DNA from: Actinomycetes bacterium
GTDB taxonomy: Bacteria > Actinomycetota > UBA4738 > HRBIN12
Direction: 5' to 3'
NCBI GenBank assembly: GCA_021155985.1
Contig: JAJNBA010000001.1
Coordinates: forward strand, 10,700-74,699
DNA: 64,000 nt
This document shows positions 747 to 49,755 of the stretch, in pieces. Within the stretch, counting starts at the first letter, position 1, and every line of letters begins with the position of its first letter. Below the pieces are notes generated by a model that had not been told where the DNA came from, searched no databases, and saw nothing but the letters and a program-made list of their open reading frames with translations. The translations under genes were made by a program, and so were the position numbers.

Positions 747-2872
747 CTACCGCTCCGACGACCGCCCGTCGCCCTCGAACCGCAGCAGCATCAGTGAGTG
801 CGCGACCAGGTTCAGTGCCTCGCGTCGGATCACCCGCGTCTGGCCGGGGTTCGCCGTCTGGAGGATCTCGTGCCAGACGCCGCCCCCTTCGAAGCGGGGA
901 AGGGTGACCTTCTTCGAACGGGTTCCACCGTTCAGCAAGAGGAGGACGGTGTCGCCGCGGATCCGTCGCCCCCGATCGTCTCGCTCATCGGTGGCTCGTC
1001 CCGGGATCAGCATCCCGAGGACCCGGTTCTCCGGGTCCGCCCAATCCTCGTCGGTCATCTCCTCCCCGTCGGGCCGCACCCACATCACGTCCTTCCGGCC
1101 ACCGCCGTCGAACGTCCCGCTGAAGAACGAACGGCGCCGGAGCACCGGGTTCGATCGGAAGATCTGCAGGGCCGACCTGGTGAAGTTCAACATCGCCTTA
1201 TCGCGGTGCTCCCAGTCGAACCAGCTGACCTCGTTGTCCTGGCCGTACGCGTTGTTGTTGCCGCGCTGCGTCCGGGAGATCTCGTCGCCGCCGAGGAGCA
1301 TCCGGACGCCCTGGGAGAAGATCAACGTGGCGATCAGGTTGCGCTTCATCCGCTCGCGGAGCTTCACGACCTCCGGTTGATCCGACGGACCTTCCACACC
1401 CCAGTTCGCGGAGAAGTTCTCGTCCGACCCGTCTTCGTTGCCCTCGCCGTTCTCCTCGTTGTGCTTCGACTCGAACGTGACGAGGTCCTGCAGGGTGAAG
1501 CCGTCGTGCGCCGTGACGAAGTTGACCGAGGCGTACGTGTTCCGCCCGCTCGCCTCGTAGAGGTCGCTCGATCCGGAGAGCCGGAACGCGAGCTCCGGTA
1601 GCTGCCCGGGGTCGCCGCGCCAGAACCGACGGACGCAGTCCCGGTACTTCCCGTTCCACTCCGCCCATCCCACGGGGAAGTTGCCCACCTGGTAGCCGCC
1701 GGGACCGACGTCCCATGGCTCGGCGATCAGCTTCACCTGAGAGAGCACCGGGTCCTGCTGGATGATGTCGAAGAACGTCCCCAGGCGGTTCACCTCGTAG
1801 AGCTCGCGAGCGAGGACCGGCGCCAGATCGAAGCGGAACCCGTCCACGTGCATCTCCAGCACCCAGTGGCGGAGGCTGTCCATGATCAGCTGGATCGCGC
1901 GTGGATGGAGCATGTTGAGGCTGTTGCCCGTCCCTGAGAAGTCGATGTAGTAGCGCGGATCGTCGGGAGAGAGCCGGTAGAAGGCCTTGTTGTCGATGCC
2001 ACGGAGGGAGAGCGTCGGGCCGAGGTGGTTCCCCTCGGCGGTGTGGTTGTAGACGACGTCGAGGATCACCTCGATCCCGGCCCGGTGCAACGTCTTGACC
2101 ATCGACTTGAACTCGTAGACCTGCTGCCCGACGGAACGGGTGGCATAGGCGTGGTGCGGGGCGAAGAACCCGATCGAGTTGTAGCCCCAGTAGTTCGCGA
2201 GGCCGCGCTCGACGAGGTGCCGGTCGTCGACGAACTGGTGGACCGGGAGGAGCTCGACCGCGGTCACGCCGAGCGACAGCAGGTGCTCCACCAGGGGATC
2301 GTGCGCGAGCGCGAGGTACGTTCCCCGTATCTCCGGGGGGATCGAGGGATTGGTCTTCGTCATGCCCCGCACGTGCGTCTCGTAGACGACCGTCCGGTTC
2401 CACGGCGTCTCCGGCCGACGGTCCTCTCCCCAGGTGAACGCCCGGTCGATCACCACGCACTTCGGCATCGAACCCGCGCTATCGCGCGCGTCGAACGAGA
2501 TGTCCTCGTCCGCGTGGCCGATCTCGTAGCCGTAGACCGCGTCGTGCCATCGAACCGGTCCGCTGACCGCTCTCGCGTACGGATCGAGGAGGAGCTTGTT
2601 CGGGTTGAACCGGTGGCCCTCCCGCGGCTCGTACGGTCCGTGCACGCGGTAGCCGTACAGGCGTCCCGGTCGCACGTCCGGCAGGTACGCGTGCCACAGC
2701 AGGTCCGTTCGGTTCGTGAGCGGGATCCGCTCGGCCTCCACCGCGTCGTCGGGCCGCTCGAACAGGCAGAGGTCGACGCCGGTCGCGTGCTCGGAGAACA
2801 GCGAGAAGTTGACCCCTTCCCCGTCCCACGTGGCGCCCTGGGGATAGGGCGAGCCCGGCCAGACCCGGATCG

Positions 2873-2876
<4 letters not shown>
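747..2876 (-). CDS. glgX: glycogen debranching enzyme GlgX (GH13)
   Basis: N-terminus [29 protein letters not shown] plus GH13 debrancher blocks ([26 protein letters not shown]). Start moved from track 2903 to in-frame GTG 2876, which overlaps the glgB TGA (GTGA). Confidence 0.93.
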
Positions 2877-4764
<1,888 letters not shown>

Positions 4765-45972: not shown

Positions 45973-46554
45973 ATGGCCTGGCTCGTCGCCGGCCTCGGCA
46001 ACCCGGACGATCGCTATGCGCGGACGCGCCACAACCTCGGCCGCATGGTCGTCGACGAGCTGGCACGCGAGGAAGGCGAGCGGTTCCGGAAGGTGCGGTT
46101 CCTCCCCGTCGAGTCCGCGGAGATCCGTGTGTCGGACGGACGAGTCATCCTCGCGCGCTCCACGCGGTACATGAACGAGTCGGGGCCGTCCTACGCCTCG
46201 CTCGCCAAGAAGCAGGGGATCGAACCCGCCAAGGTGGTCGCCGTCCACGACGAGCTGGACATCCCCGCGGGCACGATCCGGATCAAGCAGGGGGGCGGCA
46301 ACAGCGGTCACAACGGCCTCCGTTCGCTCGACCAGGCCTTCCGCACACCCGACTACCTGCGCGTGCGCGTGGGGATCGGCCGCCCGCCGGGACGCCAGGA
46401 TCCATCGGACTTCGTGCTCCAGCCGGTCGGGGCACGGGAAGAGAGGGACCTCGCGCCGCTCGTGAGCCACGCCGCCGATGCCGTCCGCGCGCTGATCACG
46501 GACGGGCTGGAGCGCACCCAGGATCGATTCAACCGCTCCACCCCATCCCCCTGA
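45973..46554 (+). CDS. pth: peptidyl-tRNA hydrolase
   Basis: Blocks LVAGLGNPDDRYARTRHNLG and GGNSGHNGLRS. Lies 3 nt downstream of rplY. Confidence 0.95.
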   Translation: MAWLVAGLGNPDDRYARTRHNLGRMVVDELAREEGERFRKVRFLPVESAEIRVSDGRVILARSTRYMNESGPSYASLAKKQGIEPAKVVAVHDELDIPAGTIRIKQGGGNSGHNGLRSLDQAFRTPDYLRVRVGIGRPPGRQDPSDFVLQPVGAREERDLAPLVSHAADAVRALITDGLERTQDRFNRSTPSP

Positions 46555-46683
46555 GCCGAGGGGGCCTTCCCCCAGGCGGCTGACACCGGCTCGGGAGGAC
46601 TACCCCCCCTCCCCTTCGGTGCGATAGGGGTTGGGCCATCGGCCTATCCGCATCACCCGCGTTGGGGGCCCATCCCCGACGAA

Positions 46684-46781
46684 GGTCGAGGGTGCCCGGC
46701 CGATGGAAACTCGGGACCGTAGCCCGATGACCCGACCCCCGTGCGCCGGTCATCCTCGACCTCGATAGACAAGGAGGTCGA
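46684..46781 (+). promoter_or_regulatory. candidate cis-regulatory RNA (nested helices with alternative pairing to the micro-ORF SD), class unknown
   Basis: GGTCGAGG (46684-91) pairs with CCTCGACC (46754-61), enclosing GATGACC (46726-32) / GGTCATC (46748-54). TCGACC (46756-61) can instead pair with GGTCGA (46776-81), which overlaps the SD AAGGAGG (46771-77). Confidence 0.3.
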
Positions 46782-46785
46782 CGAG

Positions 46786-46842
46786 ATGTGTACCGCTACG
46801 GTTCCCCAGGTCTCCGTCGACGTTCGCTGGAAGCCCTGCTGA
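46786..46842 (+). CDS. micro-ORF 1, 18 codons (MCTATVPQVSVDVRWKPC), possible leader peptide
   Basis: Canonical AAGGAGG SD 8 nt upstream of the ATG. TGA stop. Below the ORF-track length cutoff. GC3 ~78% by hand count. Confidence 0.4.
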   Translation: MCTATVPQVSVDVRWKPC

Positions 46843-46869
46843 CGCAGGTCCGACCACGAAGGAGAGAGC

Positions 46870-46953
46870 ATGCGACTCCGCAAGATCGCGTACTCGCTCG
46901 CCTGGCTGGCCGCCCTCGCGATGGCGGTGGGTGCCGGCTGGCGTCCGCACTGA
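46870..46953 (+). CDS. micro-ORF 2, 27 codons (MRLRKIAYSLAWLAALAMAVGAGWRPH), small hydrophobic peptide or leader peptide
   Basis: GAAGGAGAG SD ~5 nt upstream of the ATG. Basic N-terminus plus one hydrophobic helix. GC3 ~89% by hand count, which is gene-like. TGA stop. Confidence 0.45.
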   Translation: MRLRKIAYSLAWLAALAMAVGAGWRPH

Positions 46954-46970
46954 GGTAGTACGGGTTCCTC

Positions 46971-47008
46971 GCTCCCGGTCCTGTCCGATCCCGGATACGA
47001 CCGGGAGC
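46971..47008 (+). promoter_or_regulatory. perfect 10-bp hairpin sequestering the SD of the downstream gene
   Basis: GCTCCCGGTC (46971-80) pairs with GACCGGGAGC (46999-47008). The 3' arm contains GGGAG, 5 nt before ATG 47013. The 18-nt loop holds an inner TCCG/CGGA helix. An alternative 6-bp pairing is TCCCGG (46989-94) / CCGGGA (47001-06). Confidence 0.5.
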
Positions 47009-47012
47009 TTCC

Positions 47013-47630
47013 ATGTTGAGGGACGCTTCAGGCGTTCGGGAAGGGGTCGATACCTACACCATGAAGCTCGTCGCGATCGGTCTCGTGCTGGGCATCGCCG
47101 TCGGCTACCTTCACGGCGGGCGACTGTTGCAACTGTCCGAGCTCAAGCCCCGCTACGCGCCCCTCGCCCTGGCCGGTCTGTTGCTCCAGCTGGTGAACCC
47201 TCCCGGCTCGTGGCCCCTCGTGCTGCTGATCCTTTCATTCGTCCTGCTGACGGCGTTCACGCTCGCGAACATCCGGATCGTCGGATTCGCGGCGATCCTG
47301 GTCGGCGTCGTTCTCAACTTCACCGTGATCGCGATCAACGGCGGGATGCCGGTCGCCCGTGAGGCCATCATCGCCTCCGGCCAGGAGGGGACCCTCGCTC
47401 CGCTGCTCGAGCAACATGGGGTGAAACATCACCTCGCCGGGTCCGAGGACCGGATGCTGTTCCTCGGCGACGTGATCGCGGTCCCGGCACCGGTGAGCCA
47501 GGTGATCAGCGTCGGTGACCTGTTCACCTACGGAGGCATGGCGGTCGTGATCGCCGGATCGATGCGACGGCGCTCTTCGTCTTCTCTCCTGCCAACTCTC
47601 GCGGAGGCTCCCCGTGTCAAGGTCTCGTGA
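47013..47630 (+). CDS. DUF5317-like polytopic membrane protein
   Basis: About 5 hydrophobic segments. The N-terminal MKLVAIGLVLGIAVGYLHGGRL pattern resembles DUF5317, by my recollection of that family. ATG 47013 has the well-spaced GGGAG SD, and ATG 47061 is an alternative. Confidence 0.6.
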   Translation: MLRDASGVREGVDTYTMKLVAIGLVLGIAVGYLHGGRLLQLSELKPRYAPLALAGLLLQLVNPPGSWPLVLLILSFVLLTAFTLANIRIVGFAAILVGVVLNFTVIAINGGMPVAREAIIASGQEGTLAPLLEQHGVKHHLAGSEDRMLFLGDVIAVPAPVSQVISVGDLFTYGGMAVVIAGSMRRRSSSSLLPTLAEAPRVKVS

Positions 47631-49755
47631 TCGTCGCCGGAGCGACGGCGCGAAGGGCGACCTGCGAGAGGGGCGACGCTCGCTCCTGCGAGCGTACGAA
47701 CTCTTAGTCACGGTGCCGCTCCTGGCGTTCCTCGCGTTCGAGATCATGCACGACCCGTCCGCGTTCACGAGCTGGCGAACCCTGCTGCCGATCCTCGTGT
47801 GGATCGCGGCGATCATCGTCGTCGACCTCATGCCTGTGCCGATGGCGATGTCGTTCGACTTCAGCTTGAGCTTCCCGCTTGAGCTGTCCGTCGCCCTGCT
47901 CTACCCGCCGCCCATCGCCGCGTTGATCGTCCTGCTCGGCTCGGCCGACGTTCGGGAGTTCCGGCGACAGGTCCCGCCGCTGACCGCGGTGTTCGTGCGA
48001 GCGCAGATCGCACTCGCGGTGCTCGCGGAGAGTCAGGTCTTCCGCGGTCTCGCTGACCTCCACGCCAGCTGGCTCATCGTGGGCGCGACCGTCCTGCTCG
48101 CGGCTGTCGTCGGGTACGCCGTCAACACCCTCCTGGTCGCGGAATGGCAGTCGATCAAGAGCCGCACCCCGCTGGACACGATCCTGCGGCAGATGCACAG
48201 CGGCGTGCTCGGCGAGTTCGTGGTCTCCTACATGGGACTGGCGTTGTTTAGCGTCCTCGTCGCGATCACCACCGAAACGATCGGCCCCTGGGCGATCGCG
48301 GTATTCATCGCTCCGCTGGCGTTCGCATGGCAGATGCTCCACCGCACCCATTCCCTCAAGATCACGTCCGAGGAGCTCGCCGAGAAGCAGCGTGAGAACG
48401 AGTACCAGGCGTTCCACGATCATCTGACCGGGCTCCCGAACCGGCTCCTGTTCCGCCTGCAGCTCGGAGACGCGATCGAAGAAGCGGCCGCGAACGGAGG
48501 CCGCCTCGCCGTGATGCTGATGGACCTCGATCATTTCAAGGAGGTGAACGACGCCCTCGGGCACCACGTGGGGGATCGCCTCCTCGCCGCGGTCGGCCCT
48601 CGCCTCGCCGACACGCTTCGTGAAGAGGATCTGATGGCGCGCCTCGGCGGCGACGAGTTCGGCGTCCTCGTGCGCGACGTCGCGGATGACGCGACCGCGA
48701 TCGGGATCGCCGAACGGTTGATCGATGGGCTGCATCACCCCGTGACGGTGGACGAGCTGGACCTCGACGTTTCGGGCAGCATCGGCATCTCGTTCTATCC
48801 GGATCACGCGCTCGATGCCGATACATTGCTCCGCCACGCCGACGTCGCGATGTACACGTCGAAGGAGACCGGGACGCCGTTCGAGGTGTACGAGGAGTCG
48901 ATCGACACGCACAAGCCGGAGCTAGTCAAGCTCGTGAGTCAGGTGCGGCCCGCGATCGACGACGAGCAGTTCCGGATGTACTTCCAGCCGAAGATCCGGC
49001 TCTCCGACGGCCGGGTCGCGGGCGCGGAGGCGTTGATCCGCTGGCACCATCCGACCCTCGGACGTCTCTCGCCGGGCAACTTCATCCCCATGGTGGAGAA
49101 GACGGTGCTGCTCCAGCCGCTCACGCATTGGGCGCTGAACGATGTTCTGCGCGTCTGGCGCCGATGGTCCGACGAGGGGATCAAGATCCCGGTGGCCGTC
49201 AACGTCTCCCCGAGGACCCTGCTCGATCAGGACCTCCCTCAGGTCGTCGGGGACCTCCTGGCCCGATGGTGTGTGCCCCCCAAGTACCTCCGTCTCGAAC
49301 TGACCGAGAACTTCCTGGTGGCCGACTCCGGTCGCTCCGACACGGTCCTGAACGGCCTCTCTCAGGTGGGCGTGGGCCTCTCGATCGATGACTTCGGGAC
49401 GGGCTTCTCCTCGCTCTCCTACCTGAAGCGGCTGCCGATCGAGGAGATCAAGATCGACCGCTCCTTCGTGTCCAACATGATGGAGCGCGTCGAGGACTTC
49501 ACGATCGTCCGGGCAACGGTGGAGCTCGGGAGGAACCTCGGGTTGCGGGTGGTCGCTGAAGGCGTCCAGGATCGCGACACGTTCGATCGGCTCGGTGACT
49601 TCGGGTGCGACGAAGCACAGGGCTTCTACATCGCCCGCCCGTTGGAGCCGGAAGACTTCTGGCGCTGGCTGTCGCATCGGGAGATGTCCGGCGAGGCCCT
49701 CGATCCGTCGCTCGAGGACGCGCCGGCCGTCCGCGGAACGCTCCGCGCCGTCTAG
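47614..49755 (+). CDS. membrane-bound bifunctional diguanylate cyclase / c-di-GMP phosphodiesterase (GGDEF-EAL) with uncharacterised N-terminal ~250-aa multi-TM domain
   Basis: GGDEF domain with intact RLGGDEFGVL. EAL domain with EALIRW, ELTE, DDFGTGFSSLSYL. GGAGG SD 6 nt before GTG 47614. 17-nt overlap with the upstream gene. Confidence 0.9.
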   Translation: MSRSRDRRRSDGAKGDLREGRRSLLRAYELLVTVPLLAFLAFEIMHDPSAFTSWRTLLPILVWIAAIIVVDLMPVPMAMSFDFSLSFPLELSVALLYPPPIAALIVLLGSADVREFRRQVPPLTAVFVRAQIALAVLAESQVFRGLADLHASWLIVGATVLLAAVVGYAVNTLLVAEWQSIKSRTPLDTILRQMHSGVLGEFVVSYMGLALFSVLVAITTETIGPWAIAVFIAPLAFAWQMLHRTHSLKITSEELAEKQRENEYQAFHDHLTGLPNRLLFRLQLGDAIEEAAANGGRLAVMLMDLDHFKEVNDALGHHVGDRLLAAVGPRLADTLREEDLMARLGGDEFGVLVRDVADDATAIGIAERLIDGLHHPVTVDELDLDVSGSIGISFYPDHALDADTLLRHADVAMYTSKETGTPFEVYEESIDTHKPELVKLVSQVRPAIDDEQFRMYFQPKIRLSDGRVAGAEALIRWHHPTLGRLSPGNFIPMVEKTVLLQPLTHWALNDVLRVWRRWSDEGIKIPVAVNVSPRTLLDQDLPQVVGDLLARWCVPPKYLRLELTENFLVADSGRSDTVLNGLSQVGVGLSIDDFGTGFSSLSYLKRLPIEEIKIDRSFVSNMMERVEDFTIVRATVELGRNLGLRVVAEGVQDRDTFDRLGDFGCDEAQGFYIARPLEPEDFWRWLSHREMSGEALDPSLEDAPAVRGTLRAV

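Follow-up and report, generated by a model that had tools for sequence, protein, structure and literature searches.

Gene content and layout of the locus

The locus lies within a 64,000-nucleotide stretch (64 kb, referred to here as the window) of contig JAJNBA010000001.1 from an Actinomycetes bacterium. Two very short open reading frames, ORF1 and ORF2, precede a gene for the polytopic membrane protein DUF5317, which is followed by a gene for a membrane sensor carrying GGDEF and EAL domains, associated with the bacterial signal c-di-GMP. The micro-ORFs are flanked by a conserved noncoding leader on one side and a GC-rich hairpin on the other, and a promoter-like element stands between the hairpin and the DUF5317 gene (Table 1). 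The initial annotation had read both frames in this gap, together with their Shine-Dalgarno (SD) sequences, which it ranked among the best in the window, and a shared ending of W-[KR]-P-x-stop. The two frames, their SD sequences, and the shared ending are confirmed as described. The shared ending is not a matter of chance, since of 1118 stop-to-stop frames of at least 15 amino acids in the window, only these two end W[KR]Px*. The GC content at third codon positions is 0.89 for ORF2, as the initial annotation had estimated, and 0.78 for ORF1, against an overall GC content of 0.694 for the window.

Table 1. Features of the micro-ORF cassette and the adjoining operon (window coordinates)
Position	Strand	Feature	Details
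46570..46785	+	Conserved noncoding leader of the cassette	Two GCCGAT[GA]-type boxes: GCCGATGG (46699-46706) and CCCGATGA (46723-46730)
46771..46777	+	SD sequence of ORF1	AAGGAGG, 8 nt before ORF1
46786..46842	+	ORF1, ATG to TGA, 18 codons; helix-less remnant of the A-type peptide	MCTATVPQVSVDVRWKPC
46858..46866	+	SD sequence of ORF2	GAAGGAGAG, 3 nt before ORF2; GGAG core 5 nt from the ATG
46870..46953	+	ORF2, ATG to TGA, 27 codons; B-type member of the peptide family	MRLRKIAYSLAWLAALAMAVGAGWRPH
46971..47008	+	GC-rich hairpin closing the cassette; terminator- or stabilizer-like, no U-tail	GCTCCCGGTC...GACCGGGAGC, with an inner GTCCG/CGGAT stem
47027..47053	+	Promoter-like element of the DUF5317 operon, resembling sigma-28/WhiG promoters	TTCA-N15-GTCGATAC, ending 7 nt before ATG 47061; no SD, placed for a leaderless mRNA
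47061..47630	+	DUF5317 polytopic membrane protein	Start at 47061, not 47013
47614..49755	+	Membrane sensor: divergent MASE9 N-terminal domain, GGDEF, EAL	MASE9 region about aa 24-251

Conservation of the two micro-ORFs

Are these frames actually coding? Conservation in relatives had been named beforehand as the test of this point, and both frames, with their start codons, SD sequences, and stops, are kept in 15 related loci whose DUF5317 protein is 64-89% identical. For ORF2, the ratio pN/pS is 0.17 in frame, against 2.26 and 1.08 out of frame, and variable columns by codon position number 3/2/14. Its length is constant at 27 amino acids in every relative, even in L010 (L numbers denote the individual loci that were compared), whose DUF5317 is only 49% identical, and its SD sequence is conserved in all relatives. 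ORF2 is therefore a genuine gene.

In the clade of the window, ORF1 is 17 to 19 codons long, with indels only in multiples of 3, and its start, SD, and stop are kept. The codons for ARWKP(C) change almost only synonymously while the flanking spacer diverges; in L135, L118, and L155, for example, the adjacent spacer has diverged, yet the ARWKP codons differ only at synonymous third positions. The N-terminal half, by contrast, shows no codon periodicity, with variable columns of 5/6/6. The L135 version, MDDTISNLFAAGARWKPC, matches the C terminus of the A-type peptides described below (..LLFAAGARWKP..). ORF1 is thus an A-type peptide that lost its helix but kept its N terminus (MRT) and its C-terminal ARWKPC, the latter under selection at the amino acid level.

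The same alignments bear on the neighboring gene. Relatives have a stop and no ATG at the position of ATG 47013, so the true DUF5317 start is ATG 47061, and the gap holding the micro-ORFs is longer than the initial annotation assumed.

A large family of micro-proteins

To look for homologs of such short peptides, metagenomes were scanned with degenerate DNA patterns. At least 137 distinct peptides of 20 to 36 amino acids share a basic N terminus, a hydrophobic helix, the motif G-A-x-W-[KR], and 0 to 4 further residues. Of 126 matches examined, 110 stop within 3 codons after W[KR], against a background of 13.6%. These members were selected with a pattern that forces the helix core, so the conservation of that core among them is partly by construction. 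In addition, 26 short predicted proteins match ORF2 at their very C terminus. The peptides usually occur as A+B pairs in 1 to 5 tandem cassettes, and ORF2 is a B-type peptide. The shared ending of ORF1 and ORF2 is accordingly a real homologous motif, because the two are paralogs. A22 is the only invariant residue, and G21 and W24 are each at least 90% conserved. Among the members collected, the stop codons are TGA (90), TAG (75), and TAA (28), and Pro is replaced by A, T, N, S, V, W, or F in about 40% of unique peptides.

Not all A-type peptides are intact. Fused helix-less A remnants appear in L042, L072, and L129, and in L042 and L072 the RWK[PH] motif is internal, fused in frame to the B peptide. 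A-type peptides are degenerate in L087 and L099 as well, and many loci work with a single peptide. Within the window, the family hidden Markov model hits ORF2 at an E value of 1.4e-16 and nothing else.

As the initial annotation had supposed, no described family covers these peptides. Neither ORF matches any model in Pfam-A or NCBIfam 20.0, and of 40 representatives scanned at E values up to 10, only unrelated singletons appear, at 0.0096 or more. ORF2 is a one-helix peptide with a basic N terminus and a hydrophobic stretch of about 19 residues, in line with the alternative reading offered by the initial annotation. Judged from its letters alone, it can be divided into the n, h, and c regions of a Sec signal peptide (MRLRK / IAYSLAWLAALAM / A-V-G-A | GWRPH), for which the criteria are a basic n-region, an h-region of 7 to 15 residues, A, G, or S at position -1, and a small or aliphatic residue at -3; the invariant A22 is at position -1.

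Genomic neighbors: DUF5317 and MASE9 sensors

The peptides lie next to DUF5317 and membrane sensors in three phyla and in every orientation. Of 103 metagenome loci, 76 carry DUF5317 and/or the sensor transmembrane domain, 74 of them within 500 nt, and 17 of the other 27 are cut short. As for their arrangement, 110 peptides are upstream on the same strand, 21 are divergent from DUF5317, 4 are downstream on the same strand, and 1 is convergent. A further 13 lie next to a sensor without DUF5317, and 10 peptides are divergent from a sensor gene. One cassette lies between pth and mfd with no DUF5317 or sensor beside it. The outputs of the sensors differ, being GGDEF-EAL, HD-GYP, or HisKA or HisKA_3 kinases, but they share the MASE9 input domain. 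Distant members sit beside MASE9-HD-GYP plus DUF5317 in metagenome-assembled genomes (MAGs) of Acidimicrobiia, Chloroflexota, and Clostridia and in a 1-Mb contig. A homology search with the HD-GYP protein of L035, one of these loci, returned only MAG relatives but yielded another, L156, that carries the micro-ORF.

In the window, the GGDEF and EAL domains of the sensor are recognized by Pfam, but residues 1-269 give no Pfam hit at E values up to 0.01, and the N terminus therefore does not reach the gathering score of the MASE9 model (PF20972). Its assignment rests instead on homology. Alignment of the window-type profile by hhalign against N termini of HD-GYP sensors from peptide/DUF5317 loci gives a probability of 99.6% and an E value of 1.6e-24 over 221 columns. 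Of the five sequences in that second profile, L023 (48 bits) and L034 (29 bits) pass the 24.3-bit cutoff, and L017 (22.9 bits) falls just below it. A tblastn search also links the window domain, at 35% identity, to the MASE9 kinase of L012, which scores 24.8 bits.

The downstream gene is a clear member of DUF5317 (PF17248; E value of 9e-24, 84.6 bits against a cutoff of 25). The family has invariant K-H-H, D, D, S, and G-D residues in a predicted extramembrane mini-domain. Its two GD motifs suggested a GxGD-type intramembrane aspartyl protease, but the AlphaFold2 model (pLDDT of 84) has no fold match in the PDB, with a best E value of 5.5, and the idea is unsupported. A tblastn search of plasmids found no match to DUF5317, and a literature search for the name found no paper. 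A search on MASE9 found one relevant paper, which proposes that this domain binds its ligand within the membrane (bioRxiv 10.1101/2021.11.05.467447).

The cassette as an autonomous unit

The leader is highly conserved at the nucleotide level, with nhmmer E values of 1e-18 to 1e-75 in 15 loci of the window clade, and indels break every reading frame within it. Could it be a structured RNA? Rfam searches, at gathering scores on the whole window and at E values up to 10 on 46400-47200, returned only spurious hairpin hits (mir-3622 and toga_FSE) and no riboswitch. RNAalifold on 11 clade sequences found compensatory changes in only 5 of 44 pairs, with an unfavorable covariation term of +1.73. It is therefore not called an RNA element here, and the conserved blocks fit promoter or operator boxes better. 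A [GC]CCGAT[AG] box is present in 92 of 121 unique cassette upstream regions, against 0.10 expected per 150 nt.

At the other end, the 80 nt after ORF2 fold at -41.6 kcal/mol (z = -3.9), and the stem is conserved with wobble changes in the clade. Across 119 unique cassette ends the median z is -3.5, and 77% have z below -2. Beyond the hairpin, the DUF5317 gene has its own conserved promoter-like element. Of 63 unique DUF5317 upstream regions, 31 have [CT]CGAT[AG] ending 6 to 10 nt before the start (0.24 expected), and 27 have the full T[TAC][CA]A-N15-17 element (about 0 expected). Only 2 of the 31 have an SD sequence.

These elements were compared with the published sigma-28/FliA/WhiG consensus, TAAA-N15-GCCGATAA, and with that of WhiG2, T(A/C)AA-N16-GCCGATAA (PMC8325347, PMC12871210), for which -35 and -10 boxes at the correct spacing and a transcription start about 7 nt downstream are expected. 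Single-peptide cassettes show T[ACT]AA-N15-17-GCCGAT[AG] in 13 of 48 cases, while the cassette of the window has only two -10-like boxes with poor -35 elements. A search of the window for further promoters of this type gave 1 match against 0.57 expected, which is not significant on its own. A simple scan of 46300-47300 for sigma-70 promoters and terminators found nothing. The resemblance to sigma-28/WhiG promoters is one of sequence.

What might the peptides do?

The comparative analysis establishes that ORF2 is a gene, that its product belongs to a large, unannotated family normally found as A+B pairs, that ORF1 is the helix-less A partner, and that the leader, the two SD sequences, the ORFs, and the hairpin form an autonomous cassette coupled genetically to MASE9 sensors and DUF5317. 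Function is a matter of inference, as are expression, membrane localization, and any interaction, since everything rests on comparative genomics. The explanation favored here, with moderate confidence, is that the peptide acts in trans, in or at the membrane, as a partner or ligand of the MASE9 input domain, with or without DUF5317, and so tunes c-di-GMP turnover. CCGAT-type boxes recur before both the cassettes and the DUF5317 operons, and full sigma-28/WhiG-like elements occur before DUF5317 and a subset of cassettes. This suggests coregulation by a sigma factor whose Streptomyces and Rubrobacter relatives are themselves controlled by c-di-GMP, which would make a feedback loop. Some observations sit less comfortably with this view. 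Up to 5 tandem pairs with perfect SD sequences imply high dosage, which is unusual for a modulator of a low-abundance sensor; a pure helix-packing model does not explain why helix-less ORF1 and the fused A remnants persist; the peptide also reads as a textbook Sec signal peptide, which fits processing; and some cassettes have no partner gene beside them.

The interpretation of the initial annotation, that the micro-ORFs might be leader or arrest peptides because Trp and a Pro close to the stop recall TnaC, is only partly supported: the frames, the homologous ending, and the hydrophobic helix of ORF2 hold, but the cis-acting role as a general function does not find support and is considered very unlikely. 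In such a role, translation of ORF1 and/or ORF2 would stall at W-[KR]-P-x-stop and so control transcription or translation of the downstream DUF5317-GGDEF/EAL operon, or ORF1 would control ORF2. In favor of this reading, the C-terminal motif of ORF1 is conserved while the N-terminal half drifts and keeps its frame, as expected of nascent-chain effectors. The ORF1 stop lies 27 nt before the ORF2 start, with the SD of ORF2 in between, so that a ribosome paused there could affect ORF2 initiation. A hairpin lies between ORF2 and DUF5317, and the minimum free energy fold pairs the ORF1 start region with codons 10-14. However, family members are found divergent from, downstream of, or without the DUF5317 and sensor genes, a hairpin and a separate promoter-like element intervene, all three stop codons are used, and the tail after W[KR] varies, leaving no fixed Pro-stop or RF2 geometry. 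The internal motif in L042 and L072 also speaks against it. A cis role for ORF1 alone cannot be excluded, though any stalling would be an inference from sequence. Alternatively, ORF1 might be merely a decaying pseudogene, persisting because the cassette is young or because its nucleotides serve the translation initiation region of ORF2, with only ORF2 functional. The lack of periodicity in its N-terminal half, the degenerate A-type peptides of other lineages, and the loci with a single peptide make this a possibility, but a tentative one, given that the frame, start, SD, and stop are kept across a clade in which DUF5317 falls to 64% identity and that ARWKP changes are synonymous. That both ORFs are chance frames inside a noncoding regulatory RNA is all but ruled out. 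The intergenic region is indeed highly conserved and folds better than shuffled sequence (z = -3.5), but substitutions in ORF2 are overwhelmingly synonymous, homologs with different nucleotide sequences occur in three phyla, and Rfam finds nothing.

A further possibility, judged unlikely, is that the peptide is the precursor of a processed or exported signal, essentially a Sec-type signal peptide followed by only 3 to 6 residues (x-W-[KR]-P-x). Cleavage by signal peptidase, or by DUF5317 acting as a dedicated membrane peptidase or exporter, would release a short W-K/R peptide or leave a signal peptide remnant, one of which the MASE9 domain would sense, in a pheromone-to-c-di-GMP circuit built like SHP, PrgQ, or AgrD systems. 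A-[VAG]-G-A stands directly before x-W in all subfamilies, including distant ones not forced by the scan pattern; the tail varies in length and sequence by subfamily, like a specificity determinant or a leaving group; the cassettes are multicopy and appear built for high expression; helix-less ORF1 keeps exactly A|RWKPC; DUF5317 has invariant residues and a predicted fold without a PDB match; and the weak singleton database hits include PhrK and AgrD pheromone models. Yet no peptidase, ABC exporter, or Opp-type importer is conserved in the neighborhood, the helix (SLAAL.MA) is better conserved than is usual for signal peptide h-regions, and ORF1 lacks any export signal. The module is, moreover, vertically inherited in a housekeeping locus (L25-pth...mfd), unlike typical patchy pheromone loci. 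The most far-reaching speculation, which the evidence leaves possible but does not make likely, is that the A/B micro-proteins are the missing input of the orphan MASE9 domain: a genome-encoded ligand, either remaining in the membrane as a helix or cut at the G-A|x-W site, possibly by DUF5317, to give a short W-K/R peptide or a signal peptide remnant. It would switch c-di-GMP synthesis or breakdown, or kinase output, across several phyla. Its production would itself be driven by a c-di-GMP-controlled sigma-28/WhiG-type factor, giving a self-contained feedback or cell-cell signaling circuit that annotation pipelines have missed entirely.

Why would such a peptide matter? What most membrane-embedded input domains of c-di-GMP enzymes sense is an open problem, and MASE9 has no known ligand. 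The Streptomyces MASE9 proteins HdgA and HdgB have no phenotype, “probably because the activating signal is missing” (PMC6205966). A conserved micro-protein, apparently built for high expression and, at 84 nt, too short to be called by gene finders, travels with MASE9 sensors and DUF5317 whatever their output domain, and is thus a concrete candidate for the missing input or partner. It gives DUF5317 a first context, adds a large family to the poorly charted bacterial micro-proteins, and suggests a link to the c-di-GMP-controlled WhiG sigma factor. For annotation, it shows that the DUF5317 start codon is miscalled and that a 0.5-kb “intergenic” gap holds two genes, a promoter-like element, and a terminator-like hairpin.

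Comparison with known systems

The gene layout of distant loci L023, L035, and L156, which runs micro-ORF, MASE9-HD-GYP, second HD protein, and DUF5317, matches that of the S. venezuelae hdgA-hdgB operon, which encodes a 6TM/MASE9-HD-GYP protein plus a degenerate HD-GYP (PMC6205966). MASE9 proteins such as T. maritima TM1467 (bioRxiv 10.1101/2021.11.05.467447) likewise have an input signal proposed to be intramembrane. Those papers describe no micro-ORF and no DUF5317 link, and the presence of the peptide in the Streptomyces and Thermotoga loci is a prediction.

Regulatory arrest and leader peptides (TnaC, SecM, MifM, VemP, and the ApdA/ApcA RAPP family; PMC10987492, PMC7897499) share with the window a short ORF with a strong SD, a conserved C-terminal motif containing Trp and Pro, an N-terminal hydrophobic segment, and a position upstream of, and codirectional with, an operon. 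By the criteria of Fujiwara et al. 2024 for Sec/YidC-type monitoring peptides (PMC10987492), ORF2, though not ORF1, has the N-terminal segment, and the C-terminal sequence is conserved among homologs. But the position upstream of, and cotranscribed with, a regulated gene does not hold across the family, and the required spacer of more than 30 residues between localization signal and arrest site is absent. The helix ends at W, 0 to 4 residues before the stop, and so cannot leave the ribosome tunnel during a stall. TnaC-type termination stalling requires an invariant Pro in the P-site at a specific UGA/RF2 stop and a fixed Trp-to-stop distance, whereas here Pro, when present, is two positions before the stop.

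Short hydrophobic pheromone precursors of Gram-positive bacteria (SHP/Rgg, PrgQ/iCF10, ComS/XIP, and AgrD) are also 20 to 45 amino acids long, with a basic N terminus, a hydrophobic body, and the informative residues at the extreme C terminus, are encoded beside the receptor, and are sometimes multicopy. The matches to such models are only weak singletons at E values of 0.01 or more, and processing of the present peptides is hypothetical. The receptor here would be a membrane MASE9 domain with a c-di-GMP or kinase output, not a cytoplasmic Rgg or PrgX regulator or an AgrC-type kinase, and no Eep, PptAB, Opp, or AgrB homolog is conserved nearby.

The closest parallel to the favored model is found in small single-pass membrane proteins that modulate membrane sensors, such as MgrB or SafA with PhoQ, and in other micro-protein partners, such as AcrZ, KdpF, and CydX. 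These are tiny (under 50 amino acids) one-helix proteins, encoded next to or coregulated with a polytopic or membrane sensor, that act in trans within the membrane and are routinely missed by annotation. There is no sequence relationship, and no counterpart of the conserved C-terminal G-A-x-W-[KR] motif is known among them. In the present case, the putative partner is a MASE9 input domain coupled to c-di-GMP enzymes or kinases, plus DUF5317, and the peptides come as paralogous A+B pairs in up to 5 tandem cassettes.

The two reading frames and their conservation

The observation made in the initial annotation, two consecutive short frames with strong Shine-Dalgarno (SD) sequences and a common W-[KR]-P-x-stop ending in the gap after pth, held up on inspection. 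Among 1,118 stop-to-stop frames of at least 15 amino acids in the window, only these two end in this way, and the shared ending is therefore not chance. ORF2 has a GC3 of 0.89, in a window of 69% GC. The genes surrounding the frames are, in order, L25/Ctc, pth, the gap itself, DUF5317, a GGDEF-EAL protein, and mfd. One correction is needed, however. The public protein with the DUF5317 sequence (205 amino acids, "hypothetical protein K0R20_55") starts at ATG 47013, but relatives have a stop codon (TAG) and no ATG at that position. The real start is thus ATG 47061, giving a protein of 189 amino acids that has no SD and looks leaderless, and the gap is correspondingly longer. The coordinates of all features are collected in the table.

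Coordinates of the features discussed. Positions are those of the window unless a locus is named.
Location	Coordinates	Feature	Sequence or remark
Window	46555-47060	Gap between pth and the corrected DUF5317 start	
Window	46570-46785	Leader conserved in blocks	ACCGGTTC, GGACTAC, GGGCC[AT]TCGGCCTATC, CGGCCGATGGAAAC, GCCCGATG..CCGAC, CATCCTC
Window	46634-46650	Recurring motif GRCC-(N)TTC-GRCC-TA	GGCCATCGGCCTA
Window	46699-46706	CCGAT-type box	
Window	46723-46730	CCGAT-type box	
Window		SD of ORF1	AAGGAGG, 8 nt before ORF1
Window	46786-46842	ORF1, ATG to TGA	MCTATVPQVSVDVRWKPC
Window		SD of ORF2	GAAGGAGAG, ending 3 nt before ORF2
Window	46870-46953	ORF2, ATG to TGA	MRLRKIAYSLAWLAALAMAVGAGWRPH
Window	46971-47008	Predicted hairpin after the cassette	z = -3.9
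Window	47013-47063	Region of the public and corrected DUF5317 starts	ATG 47013 (public), ATG 47061 (corrected)
Window	47027-47053	Promoter-like element before DUF5317	TTCA-N15-GTCGATAC, ending 7 nt before ATG 47061
Window	47061-47630	DUF5317	
Window	47614-48420	N-terminal membrane domain of the GGDEF-EAL protein	
Locus L045 (oriented)	1340-2330	A/B cassette between pth and mfd	Also L057, L065, L109
Locus L042	3815-3949	Helix-less A remnant fused to B peptide	Also L072, L129
Locus L106 (oriented)	about 2871-4391	DUF5317-like domain fused to a long polytopic part	Also L145

Are the frames genuine genes? A scan of one genome per species with the DUF5317 protein gave 33 loci (loci from this and the later scans are designated L plus a number). 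The nine with 49 to 89% identity, all of them Actinomycetota MAGs, keep the order pth, micro-ORFs, DUF5317. ORF2 is 27 codons in every one of these, including L010, in which DUF5317 is only 49% identical and the ORF2 codons differ mainly at synonymous sites. In 16 distinct sequences of the window clade, pN/pS is 0.17 in frame, compared with 2.26 and 1.08 in the other two frames, and the variable columns fall 3/2/14 on codon positions 1/2/3. ORF2 is clearly coding. ORF1 behaves somewhat differently. It is 17 to 19 codons long, with indels only in multiples of three and with its SD, start, and stop conserved, yet its N-terminal half drifts without codon periodicity (5/6/6). Its last codons, xARWKP(C), change almost only synonymously (GCT/GCC, AAG/AAA, CCC/CCG, TGC/TGT), and this is so even in the loci L135, L118, and L155, where the adjacent 27-nt spacer has diverged. 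In two of the loci, L008 (pth, mfd, and GGDEF-EAL) and L009 (DUF5317 and mfd), tblastn hits are split into adjacent pieces. These are long-read MAG contigs, which suggests frameshift assembly errors and not real pseudogenes.

A family of paired peptides

To find further members, metagenome contigs were scanned with a degenerate DNA pattern for the ORF2 core, L-A-[AS]-L-x-[ML]-A-[VA]-G-A-x-W-[KR], which returned at least 120 stretches. The pattern says nothing about what follows it, but even so, 110 of 126 matches meet a stop codon within 3 codons after W-[KR], against a background of 13.6% for any W-[KR] in these loci. Cataloguing all such ORFs gave at least 193 genes and 137 distinct peptides of 20 to 36 amino acids. 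They have a basic N terminus (MR.R[RK]), a hydrophobic helix, G-A-x-W-[KR], and 0 to 4 further residues before the stop, which is TGA in 90 cases, TAG in 75, and TAA in 28. Because the members were chosen with a pattern that fixes the helix core, conservation of that core within this set is partly by construction, whereas the stop position, the start and SD, the basic N terminus, and the neighborhood are independent of it.

Most loci carry an A-type peptide of about 28 to 36 amino acids, for example MRAKINWRHLLLTGATLATLLLAAGARWKPN, followed about 27 to 30 nt later by a B-type peptide of about 25 to 28 amino acids, for example MRKILYALASLAAVAMAVGAGWKPY. Each has a near-perfect SD, and there are 1 to 5 such pairs in tandem. 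L139 has at least 4 pairs with a period of about 430 nt. ORF2 is a B-type peptide. ORF1 sits in the A slot and keeps both ends of the A-type peptide, MRT...SV[ND].R at the N terminus and [AG]ARWKPx at the C terminus. The L135 version, MDDTISNLFAAGARWKPC, still has the end of the helix (compare the A-type ..TLLFAAGARWKPKN). ORF1 is thus an A-type peptide that has lost its helix. In L042, L072, and L129, a helix-less A-type remnant (..ARRWKP.. or ..GSRWKH..) is fused in frame to the B-type peptide, giving a single ORF of about 45 amino acids, a second, independent way of keeping the RWK[PH] motif without the A helix.

No Pfam or NCBIfam model covers the family. A phmmer search of 1.84 billion representative proteins found 26 short proteins of 25 to 93 amino acids, unnamed in that collection, that match ORF2 at their very C terminus.

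Association with MASE9 sensors and DUF5317

What do the peptides travel with? Of 103 metagenome loci with a family ORF, 76 also carry DUF5317 and/or a homologue of the N-terminal membrane domain of the window's GGDEF-EAL protein, and in 74 of these the partner is within 500 nt. Of the other 27 loci, 17 end less than 700 nt downstream of the peptide. The orientation varies: 110 peptides lie upstream of DUF5317 on the same strand, 21 are divergent from it, 4 lie downstream on the same strand, and 1 is convergent. A further 13 lie next to a sensor gene with no DUF5317, 10 of them divergent. One lineage (L045, L057, L065, and L109) keeps the A/B cassette between pth and mfd with neither DUF5317 nor GGDEF-EAL there and with an unidentified gene on the opposite strand in between, though the partner genes may be elsewhere in the genome.

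The output domain of the sensor varies as well and includes GGDEF-EAL, HisKA histidine kinases (as in L091; an H-box, SHELRTP, is visible), HisKA_3 kinases, HD-GYP, and GGDEF-HD-GYP. In L106 and L145, a DUF5317-like N-terminal domain appears fused to a long polytopic C-terminal part, near a sensor that by eye carries GGDEF and HD-GYP motifs, next to a family peptide (MLRLRTWVFRYSLLAAFVLAAGAGWKW).

A family HMM found divergent members in distant DUF5317 loci, namely Chloroflexota L012 (MRGLRRVMIALGSIVALLLAGGAHWGIG), Clostridia L034 (MSRIVKALMTIAMLLMVGGANFKIG), Acidimicrobiia L023 (MKTRIIVLLSSLAALVLGGGAGWRW), L035, L017, L027, L033, and a 1-Mb contig, L156 (MKRIAVLLASLAALVMGGGAHFRL), in which the peptide lies 50 nt before the HD-GYP gene. 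In those loci the adjacent sensors match Pfam MASE9 at or near the gathering score of 24.3 bits, with L023 scoring 48.3, L034 29.3, L012 24.8, and L017 22.9. The N terminus of the window protein, a membrane domain of roughly 250 amino acids, gives no direct Pfam hit. Nevertheless, an hhalign comparison aligns its profile to the N termini of the HD-GYP sensors from these loci, two of which pass the MASE9 cutoff, with 99.6% probability and an E value of 1.6e-24 over 221 columns. It is a divergent MASE9 domain. The invariant association is therefore micro-peptide plus MASE9 input domain, usually with DUF5317. The authors who defined MASE9 proposed that it binds its ligand within the membrane.

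DUF5317 itself is predicted by an AF2 model (pLDDT 84) to have 5 TM helices and a small beta-rich extramembrane domain (residues 94 to 150). This domain carries the invariant residues N-G-G-x-M-P-V, K-H-H-L, D130, D137, and S-x-G-D153. A Foldseek search found no PDB match, so it may be a new membrane enzyme or receptor fold.

Predicted expression signals of the cassette

The 80 nt after the last ORF of a cassette are predicted to fold into long GC stems. Across 119 unique sequences the median MFE is -44.5 kcal/mol and the median z is -3.5, with 77% having a z below -2, while U-tails are rare (3 of 119). Between the window hairpin and DUF5317 lies a promoter-like element with no SD, and the same element is found in many clades. 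[CT]CGAT[AG] ends 6 to 10 nt before the start codon in 31 of 63 unique DUF5317 upstreams, against 0.24 expected, and 27 also have the -35-like part, against about 0 expected. Only 2 of the 31 have an SD. In the window and among the DUF5317 upstreams of L003 to L153, the form TTCA-N15-[GC][TC]CGATAC, conserved in many clades, ends 7 to 8 nt before the start codon. This is the geometry of a leaderless mRNA, and the element resembles the sigma-28/FliA/WhiG consensus (TAAA-N15-GCCGATAA; WhiG2, T(A/C)AA-N16-GCCGATAA), although the assignment is a consensus match alone, without transcription-start data.

The cassettes have comparable boxes, likewise consensus matches without transcription-start data. 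A [GC]CCGAT[AG] box is present upstream of 92 of 121 unique cassettes, against 0.10 expected per 150 nt, and 13 of 48 single-peptide cassettes have a full T[ACT]AA-N15-17-GCCGAT[AG] element, against a background of 0.002. The window cassette has two such boxes, but their -35 parts are poor, making the promoter assignment there tentative, and the in-window motif count alone is not significant. The elements suggest that the DUF5317-sensor operon and the peptide cassettes share a c-di-GMP-linked sigma factor. In Rubrobacter, WhiG promoters precede DGC and PDE genes, and WhiG itself is held in check by c-di-GMP through RsiG (PMC8325347). Such a loop is plausible here but unproven.

The leader of the window cassette is conserved in blocks across the window clade, while indels break every frame. 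It has no Rfam hit and only weak covariation, and the blocks may be operators, promoters, or RNA. A recurring motif, GRCC-(N)TTC-GRCC-TA, marks the start of each cassette leader, directly after the preceding gene or hairpin. It follows cassette hairpins in L037, L104, and L139 and pth in L010, L036, L058, and L074, and could be a mini-hairpin or a direct-repeat binding site.

How the peptides might work

The evidence, all of it comparative and nearly all from MAGs or metagenome contigs, shows that ORF2 is a conserved coding gene of a widespread family, that ORF1 is its truncated paralogue, that the family is coupled to MASE9 sensors and DUF5317 irrespective of orientation and output domain, and that the cassette has its own expression signals, with the reservations on the promoters described. 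How the peptide acts is inferred. The reading considered most likely, though by no great margin over even odds, is that it acts in trans at the membrane on the MASE9/DUF5317 module, by analogy with small membrane proteins that modulate sensor kinases. The main rival, thought unlikely but not dismissed, is that the peptide is a precursor. It reads as a canonical signal peptide, with n, h, and c regions followed by A-[VAG]-G-A before x-W, and the only invariant residue, A22, is at -1. In addition, the tail is variable, gene dosage is high, and ORF1 preserves exactly A|RWKPC. In this view DUF5317, with its invariant K-H-H, D, D, and G-D residues and a predicted fold without a PDB match, could be the processing or export partner.

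What about the suggestion in the initial annotation that these are leader or arrest peptides? Its interpretation is only partly supported: the frames and their shared ending are real, but for the family an arrest or leader role is very unlikely. It conflicts with the variable orientation, the hairpin, the separate promoter-like element, the variable stops and tails, and the lack of tunnel-exit distance. For ORF1 alone, a cis effect on ORF2 cannot be excluded, since its stop is 27 nt upstream of the ORF2 start, its C-terminal motif is conserved, and its N terminus drifts. Simple decay of ORF1 is another possibility, though less likely than not.

Comparison with known systems

Searches of the literature and of protein family databases found no description of these peptides and none of any DUF5317 function. 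In the distant loci, the layout micro-ORF, MASE9-HD-GYP, degenerate HD protein, DUF5317 matches, going by its description, the S. venezuelae hdgA-hdgB operon. Micro-protein partners and short hydrophobic signal peptides are known kinds of element, while what is new here is the family itself, its A/B cassette architecture, and its link to MASE9, DUF5317, and c-di-GMP.
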